Of a stretch of DNA of 64,000 nt, positions 6,621 to 10,640 are shown in pieces. The translations under genes were made by a program, and so were the position numbers. The number at the start of each line of letters is the position of its first letter. Positions within the stretch are counted from its first letter, which is position 1. This stretch comes from Candidatus Woesearchaeota archaeon (GTDB lineage Archaea; Nanobdellota; Nanobdellia; Woesearchaeales; 0-14-0-80-44-23): NCBI GenBank assembly GCA_038874135.1, contig JAVZCZ010000001.1, forward strand, positions 704,001 to 768,000. Direction: 5' to 3'. The notes under the pieces are model-generated. The model did not search any database. It saw only the letters and a list, made by a program, of their open reading frames with translations, and had not been told where the DNA came from.

Positions 6621-7202
6621 ATGAAAGAAAATATGCACCTGCCCATTATCCTTATTTCAGGCACGCCCGGAACAGGAAAAAGCACTCTTGCAAAATACCT
6701 ATCTGAAAAACTCACTTTTTACTCTATAAACTGCACACAGCTGGTAAAAGAAAAGAGGATTGCAAGCTATTTTGATAAAAGGCGAGAATGCTATGTCGTA
6801 GATGTCAAAAAACTAAATTCCACTCTAAAAAGTGAGATTTTGCGGCTTAAAAAGCTCACTAGCTCAAAAAAACTTAATCTAAAAGGCATAATCATAGATT
6901 CACATCTCTCCCACTTCTTCCCCGAAAAGGAAACAAGCTTGTGCATTATTTGTAAGTGTCCCCTCCCAATCTTAAGAAAGAGGCTTGAATCTAGAGGCTA
7001 CTCAAAAGATAAGGTCAGAGAAAATCTTGACGCAGAAATATTTGAGGTGTGTTTGCAGGAAGCAATAGAAAATGGCCACACCATAATTGAAGTGGATACT
7101 TCTAAGCCAGATTGCCTCGTTTCAACTCTTAAAAAGGTAAAAACTCTTCTGAACACACCCGATGACTTGTCCCGGACATGTCCCGAAATGTCCCAAAATT
7201 AG
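6621..7202 (+). CDS. Adenylate kinase 6 / Fap7-like nucleotide kinase
   Basis: ILISGTPGTGKST P-loop, IIDSHLSH, LRKRLESRGYSKDKVRENLDAEI. Confidence 0.9.
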   Translation: MKENMHLPIILISGTPGTGKSTLAKYLSEKLTFYSINCTQLVKEKRIASYFDKRRECYVVDVKKLNSTLKSEILRLKKLTSSKKLNLKGIIIDSHLSHFFPEKETSLCIICKCPLPILRKRLESRGYSKDKVRENLDAEIFEVCLQEAIENGHTIIEVDTSKPDCLVSTLKKVKTLLNTPDDLSRTCPEMSQN

Positions 7203-7218
7203 GACATGTCCCGGACAA
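7167..7218. repeat. TGTCCC(GGACA) repeat cluster 1, forming a 17-bp imperfect inverted repeat
   Basis: TGTCCC at 7168, 7179, 7189 and 7207; full TGTCCCGGACA at 7168-7178 and 7207-7217. Confidence 0.85.
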
Positions 7219-7265
7219 ATTAGGGATATCTACCTTAACTATCTTTGATAAAGATTTTTTAACTA

Positions 7266-8000
7266 TCACCTTCCGGAGATCAGTAGTTTGGTCTTTGCCG
7301 CAAGATAAAATCCTTTTTCCCTATTGCCTATTTGTCGGTCTAATATTTCAATTCCTTTTTTTCTGAGCTCACAGATGATGTTTCGAATGCTTTTTTCACT
7401 TCTTCCGACGAGTTTTGCTATTTCAGAATAGCTTATTGGTTTTTCAGTATAATGTAAAACTTTCAAAACTTCTAATTCGCCTGCTGTGAACCTGAATGTT
7501 TTTAAAGAATCTTCTGAGGCTAAAGGCATTTCAACACTTCTTTCTTTTAATTCCTTCCTAACTTTTTCTATTTTTTGAAAATTTTTTTCATTCTGTAAAG
7601 TGTCCCGGACATGTCCCGGACATGTCCCATTATCTGTCCCTGATTTTTCTGCCTCCTCGCGAACTTCTTTTAACTCTCTTTCTAATTCCTGAACCTTCCT
7701 TGAGAGTTCTGTTAGAATCTCGGCATTTTTTTCTAAGGTGCTAATCAGTTTTTCCTGCTCATTTTTTAATTCACTAATTTCTAGGCTTCTGGAATTGAGC
7801 TCTCTCCTGAAAAGTGAATGTTCTTCTTTGTTATTCAGGTGTTCCTGTGCAAAATACCTTATCCAAAGCCCAACCTTTTCTATATCCCCCCTAAGCCTTG
7901 AAAAGGAGAGCGAAATGCTTGATTCTATTGATTCTAAACTTCTACTCTTTTTCTCAGAATCCTCACTTTTTCCAATAAAAAACCTGGAAAGCCACCCCAT
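7266..8000 (-). CDS. Coiled-coil protein with C-terminal winged HTH DNA-binding domain
   Basis: Likely start MGWLSRFF at 8000 (TATA about 25 bp upstream at 8023-8032); heptad region; C-terminal FTAGELEVLKVL...ISYSEIAKLVGRSEKSIRNIICELRKKG. Confidence 0.8.
   Translation of the reverse strand: MGWLSRFFIGKSEDSEKKSRSLESIESSISLSFSRLRGDIEKVGLWIRYFAQEHLNNKEEHSLFRRELNSRSLEISELKNEQEKLISTLEKNAEILTELSRKVQELERELKEVREEAEKSGTDNGTCPGHVRDTLQNEKNFQKIEKVRKELKERSVEMPLASEDSLKTFRFTAGELEVLKVLHYTEKPISYSEIAKLVGRSEKSIRNIICELRKKGIEILDRQIGNREKGFYLAAKTKLLISGR
7601..7640. repeat. TGTCCC(GGACA) repeat cluster 2, tandem 11-mer inside the wHTH gene
   Basis: TGTCCCGGACA at 7601-7611 and 7612-7622; TGTCCC at 7623 and 7635; AT-rich tract 7561-7599 adjacent. 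Confidence 0.85.
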
Positions 8001-8123
8001 CTTGAAACTTTTAGTGCACTGGTTATATAAAAAGTTTGTTCTTGAAAAGTGAGTTTTAAGTTTATTAAGCAAGGCTTTACTGCTCAGAAAACCTTTTTAT
8101 ATTGCACCTACTTCAGATTAAAC

Positions 8124-9254: not shown

Positions 9255-10082
9255 ATGAAGTACAAAATGGAAGCAGAACCTAAGAACTTTTCAGTGAAGC
9301 CCAGCCCCTTTCTTTCACTGGCGTCAGCAATTTCAAAACTTGTCCTATTTTCAGCTATATGCTGGTTCTTTCTCATGATATTCAAATATTCTGCGGGTGA
9401 GGATACAATCTCAATGCTGCTTGAAACTTTCTCTCTTGATTTGAACCTCATCCGCACAACCGTTCTTCAACTATTTGTAGTCGCCTCTGTAATTTACATA
9501 GTCTATTCTGTGCTATCTGTGAATCAGATAAGTCTAGAAATAGGACGGGGCGTTCTGATCTATAAGCGAGGAATTCTTTTGGTGAAAAAGGATGTTGTTA
9601 GCAGCGATAATGTCGTGAGAATATACTCAGATAGCTCAAAGTTTTCAAGCATGGGAAAGCTCATACTGGAACTATCCGGACAGCTTCCCTTTATAGAGAT
9701 CCCATTTGTGCCCATGGTGAATAAGAAAGTGGAGCTCATTAAGCAGAAGATTTCAGAAGCGCAGGCAGAAGAGCTTGCTCGCAGGATATATGACATAGGG
9801 CGCGGCCAGATCGGCATTGAAATCGCACAGAAGATAAGCCGACTGATTTCTGTTCAGCAGGCATCTAAAGAAAGCATAGTTTCAGAGATAAAAAACATTT
9901 CAAGTCAGCAGAAGCTCGACAAAGACGTTTTTGAAGTTATCTTCTCTTATATGTTGAAGACTCACAGGATAACTAAGGACGAAGTGAAGGAGATTCTGTC
10001 AGAACTTATGAGGAGCGGCGTAATCTCACAGCAGGACGCCTCCGTGGTGCTTTTCAAGATCAATAATCTTCTAACCCCCTGA
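9255..10082 (+). CDS. Membrane protein, possibly with bacterial PH-like domain
   Basis: Two N-terminal TMs followed by beta-rich LIYKRGILLVKKD segment and helical tail. Confidence 0.55.
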   Translation: MKYKMEAEPKNFSVKPSPFLSLASAISKLVLFSAICWFFLMIFKYSAGEDTISMLLETFSLDLNLIRTTVLQLFVVASVIYIVYSVLSVNQISLEIGRGVLIYKRGILLVKKDVVSSDNVVRIYSDSSKFSSMGKLILELSGQLPFIEIPFVPMVNKKVELIKQKISEAQAEELARRIYDIGRGQIGIEIAQKISRLISVQQASKESIVSEIKNISSQQKLDKDVFEVIFSYMLKTHRITKDEVKEILSELMRSGVISQQDASVVLFKINNLLTP

Positions 10083-10640
10083 GCTTTTTTCTTTTTCCAG
10101 CTTCTCGTATAACATCACAAAGGTATCTGGCGAAACTTTAAGTCCAGCATTTATTATCAATCTAGCCAGAATTCTTCCGAGTTCCGGCTCGGATGTAAAC
10201 TCATTTCCCTCCTGAGATTCCTGTTTAAATCTTAATGCAGTTAGTAATTCCGTAATGGTCTGCTTGCAGATAAATCCCTCATTCGCCTTGAGAACGCATT
10301 CAGCCTCTCTCTTAGAACCCTTTCTTACAGTAAATCTCACTTTTTCTTCTGACAATTCTGCTTGAAGTGTTGTTTTTTTATCAACATCTTTTATGAAAAA
10401 CCCTTCTCTCTCCTCTGAAAAACCGCAGGCGAGAAGCTCCTCTGCAGTTATTTTAAGAATTGCCTTCTTAAAAGTTGTTTCATCACTAATTGTAAGGCTA
10501 GGCTCATAGTTTCTTTGAACATCAAACACCTTCCCGAGGTATTCTGAAACAGATTGTCTTGGACCATCTTTTGTCCATTTCTCACTTACCAAATAGGCAT
10601 ACCTATGCCTTCCATGCCCTTTAACCCTTATAAACGCCAT
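10071..10640 (-). CDS. Hypothetical protein with basic N-terminal beta motif
   Basis: 189-aa ORF, MAFIRVK...YAYLV...GPRQ...EYLG; upstream TATA-like element around 10667-10680. Confidence 0.7.
   Translation of the reverse strand: MAFIRVKGHGRHRYAYLVSEKWTKDGPRQSVSEYLGKVFDVQRNYEPSLTISDETTFKKAILKITAEELLACGFSEEREGFFIKDVDKKTTLQAELSEEKVRFTVRKGSKREAECVLKANEGFICKQTITELLTALRFKQESQEGNEFTSEPELGRILARLIINAGLKVSPDTFVMLYEKLEKEKSSGG

Follow-up and report, generated by a model that had tools for sequence, protein, structure and literature searches.

Why should a gene carry arrays of short, regularly spaced repeats inside its own reading frame and again just past its stop codon? The question is raised by a locus at ~711 kb (arrays at 711.2 and 711.6 kb) in the genome of a Candidatus Woesearchaeota archaeon, a member of the tiny symbiotic DPANN archaea, here labelled G000 (a single contig of 909,956 bp, 40.8% GC, 99.4% complete), whose nearest named relatives are metagenome-assembled genomes (MAGs) of Candidatus Woesearchaeota and Nanobdellota. 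We analysed a window of 64,000 bp, genome positions 704,001–768,000, in which the gene in question encodes a protein with a long coiled coil followed by a winged helix-turn-helix domain (cc-wHTH). The original prediction, made from the letters of the window, was that this protein binds the repeats as a non-Orc1/Cdc6 replication initiator, a segregation factor or a looping autorepressor. On balance, we lean towards a reading in which the repeat clusters are the cognate sites of the host gene's own protein, which would build a self-binding, self-limiting complex at a single chromosomal locus.

The repeats were found as described: eight TGTCCC hexamers on the forward strand, all in one orientation, at positions 7168, 7179, 7189 and 7207 (cluster 1) and 7601, 7612, 7623 and 7635 (cluster 2). 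The window holds 27 TGTCCC hexamers against 16.6 ± 3.9 expected, a number that no shuffle reached; the clustering is genuine and lies well beyond what chance would give. Across the genome there are four copies of the 11-mer TGTCCCGGACA, and every one is in the two clusters. When GGACA/TGTCC pentamers no more than 16 bp from their neighbours were chained genome-wide, the two clusters (7 and 6 pentamers) were recovered together with one trivial triple at 222.8 kb. The motif is thus not scattered at random through the genome, the outcome that had been named as damaging to the proposal; its clusters are unique to this locus. At 222.8 and 836.8 kb there are lone GGACATGTCC sites, which are compatible with chance (~0.5 expected, an estimate from base composition), and a regulon built on them was rejected. 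Since G000 has no further site cluster, a conventional regulon is unlikely.

The dyad symmetry claimed for the unit and its junction, GGACATGTCC, can be read directly in the sequence, and two of the four units of cluster 2, the internal array, are palindromic in this form. As proposed, this array is in the linker that joins the coiled coil to the wHTH domain, where it encodes residues 121–134, GTDNGTCPGHVRDT. Cluster 1, the downstream array, consists of four sense-strand GGACA units with inverted copies, which create an imperfect 18-bp inverted repeat around the central unit. It does overlap the end of the neighbouring AK6 gene, but only the non-conserved C-terminal tail. The AT-rich tract noted beside cluster 2 fared less well: it is present in G000, but it reaches the 90th percentile of the gene's own 45-bp windows in just 3 of 21 orthologues. 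The tract is lineage-specific and not a conserved part of the element, and a conserved DNA unwinding element (DUE) was rejected on the same count.

The architecture is conserved among relatives. At E ≤ 1e-8, 51 of the 401 genomes sampled from the order had a member of the family, and the other orders of the class yielded distant relatives only; a profile run against 1.8 billion representatives had 236 matches, and the protein atlas places the family in Nanobdellota. Orthologues are 45–60% identical and every one is annotated as 'hypothetical'; no description of the family or of the architecture was found in the searchable full-text literature. The arrays were analysed in 22 genomes that belong to the order and represent at least 12 GTDB families, with 28–53% protein identity. 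Homologous genes carry internal repeats in the same linker, a point that the original prediction had left to comparison: linker arrays of 4–10 sense-strand GGACA units were found in 21 of the 22 genomes. Downstream arrays of 2–10 phased GGACA units, starting 6–122 bp past the stop codon, were likewise found in 21 genomes, and they often begin with two or three inverted copies. The consensus unit across the 22 genomes is R-GGACA-W-G-T-C-A. Copies of GGGACAWGTC lie at the orthologous locus in 6 of 9 cases in G001, 5 of 5 in G002 and 5 of 9 in G022. Extra sites 60–85 bp 5' of the start codon were seen in G033, G155, G223 and G005, as would be expected of an autoregulator.

The spacing of the units points to the DNA rather than to the protein sequence. 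Neighbouring units of the linker arrays are 10, 11 or 12 bp apart in 97 of 111 cases, and those of the downstream arrays 10 or 11 bp apart in 55 of 88. A period of about one helical turn, which is not a multiple of three, within coding sequence suggests a constraint set by the DNA helix and not by the peptide. In accord with this, no codon phase is preferred: the motif's first G is at phase 0 in 46 cases, at phase 1 in 47 and at phase 2 in 43. Given this equal use of the three phases, the "odd peptide" remarked on in the original prediction is a by-product, and the invariant linker residues G121, G129, R132 and D133 of our alignment of the family (A1) together represent one DNA word read in three frames. 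The linker peptides GTCPGT and GQVRDKS, for example, are the same word in different frames. The tripeptide imprint of the word (GQV, GTS, DKS, GHV, GTC or DMS) was found in 35 of the 47 closer 50%-identity representatives (P0001–P0051) and in 2 of the 27 listed below them. The GGACA word also fills non-coding DNA beyond the stop codon. Together, these patterns indicate that the repeats are under selection at the DNA level.

A different account would hold that the linker peptide itself is selected, or that the near-identical arrays are recombination or phase-variation substrates which delete and restore the wHTH-coding segment. The linker peptide does appear conserved in A1, the direct-repeat arrays flank the wHTH segment and evolve in concert, and three draft assemblies, G003 (C24/C50), G072 (C56) and G056 (C50), break exactly at the internal array (L009, L025, L051, L056). 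But selection of the peptide is ruled out by the equal codon phases and by the occurrence of the same motif in non-coding DNA. As for a recombining cassette, a deleted form was found in none of the genomes examined and no recombinase is linked to the gene, and the exact shared stretches are short (~17 bp in G000). The assembly breaks may merely reflect variation of the unit number within populations, or they may reflect rearrangement between the arrays. We therefore regard this account as highly improbable. The contig of G001 ends just past its downstream array. Exchange of a module made of the wHTH domain and its arrays between lineages was also considered and rejected, the N- and C-terminal halves of the protein showing no incongruence.

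If the protein reads the repeats, its recognition helix should follow their sequence, and this is what we observed. The helix motif K-[ST]-[IVL]-R-N is present in 22 of 22 members with GGACA-type repeats, whose units are those of the linker and downstream arrays, and in 0 of 10 members with other repeats or none. The helix NTVKN accompanies TAGTCGACTA (unit also given as TAGTCGAC) downstream of the gene in G010 and CCATGGGCG in the linker and downstream in G135. YGTIKN accompanies GTAACATGTTAC, downstream, in G007 and G212, and the members with GTAACATG-type repeats have Y-G-T-I-K-N as their recognition helix; YGTVKN is found with GTGTAAT in the linker and downstream in G061. GRT.FY goes with CAGGTTCGGTTC-type units in the linker and downstream in G006 and with CAGGTTCG-type units in the linker in G029, and SKSTFY with TGGGAAT upstream of the gene in G026. 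Pairs of genomes with a common repeat also have a common helix. The repeat and helix groups are partly clades, so that these counts are not independent; several distinct classes nevertheless obey the same rule.

The flanks of linker and downstream units match at 0.76 within a genome and at 0.62 between genomes, and the downstream arrays of G006 and G135 almost copy the linker arrays. The two arrays evidently evolve in concert. Since recognition helix and repeat type change together, it is very probable that the protein binds these arrays, and we judge cooperative binding by the product of the same gene to be likely. The part of the original prediction in which the wHTH protein recognises the repeats thus gains strong backing from the conserved architecture, the phasing, the independence of reading frame and the co-variation of repeat and helix.

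The start of the protein is probably the ATG at position 8000, since all orthologues begin with MGW or with methionine followed by hydrophobic and then basic residues. In the AF2 model, a disordered segment (residues 121–134) and a second helix (135–154) separate the long N-terminal helix from the wHTH domain (Table 1). The best Foldseek matches of the wHTH domain are of the MarR/ArsR type, with MepR at E 2.4e-4 and MepR, ScoC, ZitR, NolR and SmtB between 2e-4 and 5e-3. Matches by sequence are weak (HTH_11, HTH_36 and TrmB; best Pfam score 21 bits against a gathering cut-off of 25), and all Pfam and NCBIfam HTH matches fall below the curated cut-offs. Pfam, NCBIfam, AF2 and Foldseek gave no domain besides the coiled coil and the one MarR/ArsR-like wHTH, and thus no helicase-loading or helicase-recruiting, AAA+ or second WH domain; the KfrA family of Pfam was not among the matches at E ≤ 0.1. 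The N-terminus has a hydrophobic-then-basic pattern, with 3.7 hydrophobic residues at positions 2–9, 3.3 K/R at 5–16 and 0.75 acidic residues at 2–10 among 142 representatives. An amphipathic N-terminal helix was rejected; the hydrophobic moment was not raised (0.33 versus 0.34 in controls), and only the hydrophobic-then-basic pattern stands. G000 also has a distant paralogue of 187 residues (185,929–186,492), with an AF..LKKEMD..H N-terminus and a wHTH domain; no repeat arrays were found in or around that gene.

In the mechanism that we propose, the protein would dimerise, or form higher oligomers, through its 115-residue N-terminal helix, and each C-terminal MarR/ArsR-like wHTH domain would read one GGACA unit through the K-S-I-R-N helix. 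The linker, disordered over ~50 residues, would let adjacent wHTH domains fill units one turn apart on the same face of the DNA. Cooperative filling of both arrays (8–20 units per genome) would bracket the 0.2–0.4-kb segment that encodes the wHTH domain, and the outcome would be one compact nucleoprotein complex per chromosome. Seated on the gene body and its 3' end, this complex would block or terminate RNA polymerase, and such autogenous feedback would keep the protein near the level that saturates its own sites. In G000, no GGACA or TGTCC was found in the 250 bp 5' of the cc-wHTH start; with no site at the promoter, binding would act on the elongating polymerase or on DNA topology. Because the complex would sit in the transcribed body and at the 3' end rather than at the promoter, feedback by polymerase block would be its most likely immediate effect, and we put the chances that the complex limits its own synthesis by such a roadblock at about even. 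With every site cluster of G000 at this one locus, the functional product is probably the complex itself. Its role as a chromosomal landmark of the centromere or operator type, and not as a regulator of other genes, is a possibility that we advance tentatively.

The position of the arrays could also be explained at the RNA level, by a 3'-end hairpin that ends or stabilises the convergent transcripts, or by binding of the protein or another factor to its own mRNA with translational feedback. In favour of this, the motif is on the sense strand in every array, and every array belongs to the coding sequence or the 3' region. The downstream element has a folding energy of −35.9 kcal/mol (z −4.9; the G149 equivalent, z −4.4), and G068 shows one apparent compensatory change, with a CGTCC/GGACG pair instead of TGTCC/GGACA. 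The hairpin, however, follows from the palindromic units and is alike on both strands (z −4.9 and −5.3), the internal array folds weakly (z −1.9), and for most units (GGACAAGTC) the transcript contains no complementary partner. Neither does the 10–11-bp phasing of direct repeats have an RNA rationale; the co-variation concerns a recognition helix of the type that reads double-stranded DNA, and the array of G026 is upstream of the gene. Rfam 15 gave no match over the arrays, the sole match between 6500 and 8300 being a sub-threshold CRISPR-DR43 (8095–8123, E 0.53) outside them. We consider an RNA-level element unlikely as the explanation; the hairpin may yet have a secondary role at the 3' ends of transcripts.

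TTF-I and Reb1 stop transcription at terminator arrays, and the arrays here might similarly be only a roadblock terminator or insulator between the convergent cc-wHTH and AK6/Fap7 genes that tunes AK6 expression and has no role at the level of the chromosome. In most orthologous loci examined, an AK6-like P-loop gene does lie convergently beyond the array, which thus separates the two 3' ends; this adjacency is striking. The repeats are also oriented relative to the gene, and some lineages have added upstream sites. But the homologue of G010 keeps its downstream array although its AK6-like gene is co-directional with the cc-wHTH homologue and separated by a gap of 2 bp. Across loci, moreover, the array tracks the cc-wHTH stop codon (6–140 bp) and not the AK6 stop codon (up to ~400 bp off), and the long conserved coiled coil, the N-terminal peptide and the linker array would be left unexplained. 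A terminator or insulator alone is thus doubtful in our view.

The proposed role as a non-Orc1/Cdc6 initiator proved to be the weakest of the three, as a canonical origin exists elsewhere, the skew gives no signal and the AT-rich tract is not conserved. G000 has one orc1/cdc6 gene, at 588.6 kb, and just upstream of it ~200 bp of AT-rich DNA are flanked by inverted repeats, GTTCCAAnnGAAACAAAGGT, that resemble origin recognition boxes (ORB). Both elements of a canonical origin, which the original prediction had singled out for checking, are thus present ~123 kb from the locus and beside the maximum of the cumulative GC skew; the GGACA units are not ORB-like. The cumulative GC skew has its maximum at 598–602 kb and its minimum at 88–93 kb. 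No inflection was seen near the arrays: the GC skew falls steadily from 680 to 740 kb and has no local extremum at 711 kb. With orc1/cdc6, its ORB-like repeats and the GC-skew extreme 110–123 kb away, a main origin at the locus was rejected.

A secondary origin independent of Orc, in which the arrays would be iterons and the protein an initiator resembling lambda O or WhiP with the origin inside its own gene, has some attractions. The dyad-symmetric repeats in the linker-coding region resemble the lambda origin in gene O and have an AT-rich neighbour in G000, a patchy distribution would suit a captured accessory replicator, and the amino/keto disparity curve (A+C against G+T) shows a minimum, broad and flat, between 700 and 760 kb. 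The AT-rich tract, however, is absent in 18 of 21 orthologues, the protein has none of the initiator domains looked for (helicase-loading, AAA+ or second WH), and the context is a conserved housekeeping neighbourhood rather than a mobile element. The canonical origin elsewhere and the course of the GC skew at 711 kb also count against it, and we hold a secondary origin to be very unlikely; apart from the likeness of its architecture to lambda O, nothing speaks for even a weak one. The global minimum of the amino/keto curve, at 707.5 kb, is 3.6 kb away from the locus and comes after strongly skewed genes between 690 and 700 kb; being broad and flat, it does not look like that of an origin.

Proximity to the origin was examined further. 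The locus is 45–142 kb from orc1/cdc6 in all five genomes in which both genes are on one contig, and 68–74% of the open reading frames (ORFs) in the stretches around and between the two genes map to 570–730 kb of G000. The proximity thus corresponds to inherited macro-synteny and was rejected as independent support for a centromere. A polar replication-fork barrier was likewise rejected, the orientation relative to a fork from orc1 being mixed (three head-on, two co-directional).

Segregation factor and looping autorepressor, the two other roles in the original prediction, are both possible and inseparable on sequence data alone. The locus has one feature of a partition cassette, in that phased repeats stand beside the gene of a putative binding protein, the binding being suggested by co-variation. 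A search of the genome (99.4% complete) gave no CbiA/ParA or AAA_31 match above the cut-off and did not extend to ParM and TubZ; the two weak CbiA/AAA_31 matches fell on a 456-residue open frame, possibly of the signal recognition particle (SRP) type, and on RadB. A ParA/MinD partner elsewhere in G000 was thus not found, and the idea that AK6 might be a partition NTPase in disguise was rejected, since it is a clear Fap7/hCINAP orthologue. Against this background, the locus might be a self-encoded, single-copy, origin-proximal landmark, acting as a motor-independent centromere or as a tether between DNA and the membrane or division site in DPANN archaea that have no ParA, a suggestion to which we give modest weight. 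The coiled coil and the hydrophobic-basic N-terminus would then connect this landmark with the envelope or with the division apparatus, and the sites would lie inside the gene to keep recombination from parting site and reader.

Several points weigh against a self-binding, self-limiting complex with such a role. The promoter is free of sites in G000 and in most orthologues, so that classical operator repression is unavailable, and roadblock feedback is postulated here with little archaeal precedent. The arrays are all transcribed, with the motif on the sense strand and a downstream hairpin, and a contribution at the RNA level is possible. The family is patchy (51 of 401 genomes), so that any landmark role would be dispensable or replaceable. 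A motor-driven partition system is not supported, as no ParA/MinD-type ATPase was detected and AK6 is bona fide, and the N-terminal peptide shows no raised amphipathic moment.

Known systems offer partial parallels, the nearest in architecture being the centromere/operator arrays of plasmids. In plasmid R1, parC comprises two sets of five 11-bp iterons to which ParR binds cooperatively, one dimer per repeat, and the parC–ParR complex is both a functional landmark and an autoregulatory operator, with its sites tightly linked to the ParR gene (PMC2241845). The locus described here shares with it two separate arrays, each of around five direct repeats with a period of ~11 bp, beside the gene of a putative binding protein. 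It differs in that ParR is a ribbon-helix-helix protein, whereas the cc-wHTH protein combines a wHTH with a coiled coil and has no sequence homology to it, and in that parC flanks the promoter, whereas the arrays here are in the linker-coding region and the 3' flank. ParR also works with the actin-like motor ParM; no partition motor was found in G000 by a search for the ParA/MinD type, which did not cover ParM. KfrA of the plasmids RA3 and RK2 has an HTH and a long self-associating coiled coil, binds 9-bp repeats that occur at no gene but its own, and regulates its own expression; it also has an accessory part in plasmid maintenance, through protein–protein contacts (PMC7783346). The cc-wHTH protein resembles it in the combination of HTH and long coiled coil and in repeats unique to its own gene, its binding and oligomerisation being predicted. 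The domain order is reversed, the HTH of KfrA being N-terminal; the KfrA operator overlaps the promoter, and KfrA is bacterial and plasmid-borne, with ParA/ParB (IncC/KorB) as partners.

The lambda origin consists of dyad-symmetric repeats inside gene O, at the part that encodes the flexible linker between the O domains, and among lambdoid phages the sites and the specificity of the O proteins co-vary. Both traits are mirrored here by repeats in the linker-coding part of a putative reader gene and by co-variation of site and protein among relatives. Unlike lambda O, the cc-wHTH locus has no conserved AT-rich unwinding tract, no skew signal and no helicase-recruiting domain; it has a second array past the stop codon, a chromosomal housekeeping context and a canonical Orc1/ORB origin elsewhere. 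In type III partition, the wHTH protein TubR coats the two blocks of phased 12-bp direct repeats that make up tubC, and in B. subtilis a parS site lies within the spo0J coding sequence. TubR–tubC and ParB work with TubZ or ParA motors, and ParB also carries CTPase and spreading domains; no such motor or domain was found here, TubZ not having been included in the searches.

The N-termini of Noc and MinE are membrane-targeting peptides, of which the hydrophobic-then-basic N-terminus of the cc-wHTH protein is reminiscent. RicO of S. aureus is a site-specific tether between DNA and the membrane (bioRxiv 10.64898/2026.03.06.710092). The parallel with Noc and RicO lies in a DNA-binding domain with a short membrane-binding peptide and in few chromosomal sites; those proteins bind many or several origin-proximal sites, whereas the arrays here are inside the protein's own gene and membrane binding is putative. 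MarR/ArsR factors share the fold of the C-terminal domain by Foldseek, but the cc-wHTH protein has no dimerisation helix bundle as in MarR, a 115-residue coiled coil precedes the domain, and the site clusters are solely at its own gene. Compared with iteron- or centromere-type arrays, the distinguishing traits are a linker-coding array in three frames, co-evolution of motif and reader across an archaeal order, and no apparent motor.

These findings bear on how DPANN archaea organise and segregate their chromosomes, which are small, and for which in G000 no ParA/MinD-type ATPase was detected. A compact two-part system of one protein and its cis sites would mark a single locus, and its architecture was kept while motif and helix changed together. 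If a centromere- or tether-like landmark is the true role, the locus would represent an archaeal chromosome-positioning device of a new kind; if the complex is a roadblock autoregulator only, it would still be an unusual form of archaeal gene control. For annotation, the lesson is that what looks like a 'conserved linker peptide' may in fact be a DNA element; the arrays are a clear case of a non-coding signal that runs through a coding region in all three frames, which bears on the evolution of overlapping codes.

Table 1. Features of the cc-wHTH locus and the ORB-like elements (window coordinates, except for the last row).
Feature	Position	Strand	Basis or remark
AK6/Fap7 gene, convergent, conserved neighbour	6621..7202	+	ORF tail enters downstream array
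Downstream array (cluster 1)	7167..7218	-	49-99 bp past cc-wHTH stop codon
cc-wHTH gene (coiled-coil/wHTH protein, 244 aa)	7266..8000	-	ORF list, alignment A1, AF2 model
wHTH domain, aa 173-233	7302..7484	-	AF2, Foldseek
Recognition helix, aa 202-214	7359-7397	-	K203-S204-I205-R206-N207
AT-rich tract beside internal array	7561..7599	.	78% AT in 45 bp after array
Internal array (cluster 2)	7599..7641	-	four sense-strand GGGACA units, 11/11/12-bp spacing
Long N-terminal helix/coiled coil, aa 4-119	7644..7991	-	conserved block F33, D39, W46, H61
N-terminal hydrophobic-then-basic peptide, MGWLSRFFIGKSEDSEKK	7947..8000	-	family-wide pattern
Probable TATA box of cc-wHTH gene, TTTTTATATAA	8023..8033	-	read from sequence, ~28 bp before ATG
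ORB-like elements	L005:344-363 and 561-580, genome ~587.3-587.7 kb		inverted pair

The AK6/Fap7 neighbour (Table 1) was identified by Pfam AAA_18 (1.4e-26) and NCBIfam PRK03839, and by matches in the PDB to hCINAP (3iij) and Fap7 (4cvn) at ~1e-20. The solved structures match only to about residue 170 of the 193 of the ORF, and the C-terminal tail that cluster 1 overlaps is non-conserved. In G155 (L042), a microsatellite of ~75 bp, (AG)n/(GA)n, lies directly 3' of the downstream GGACA array, 120–195 bp past the stop codon.

On the upstream side of the cc-wHTH gene in G000 is a divergent NFACT gene. From the distance between TATA box and ATG, the cc-wHTH mRNA is probably leaderless or near-leaderless. 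The NFACT gene has a TATA-like box at 8094–8104; both divergent genes have their box ~25–28 bp before the ATG, which suggests leaderless transcripts from a shared promoter region of 123 bp. Further upstream, at 10071–10640 (−) of the window, a 189-residue protein that starts with MAFIRVKGHGRHRYAYLVSEKW and has no Pfam match is a conserved neighbour in G001, G002 and G010, with homologues that start M(A/G)FIRVKG... or MFVRLKKIKG.... In many orthologous loci, a gene for a protein of ~300 residues precedes the cc-wHTH gene co-directionally (L029:4757-5659, L028:4819-5769 and equivalents). At its N-terminus this protein has an ArsR-like wHTH, and its C-terminal part gives a weak S-layer-like match; in G000 and some other genomes the NFACT gene takes its place at the upstream position.

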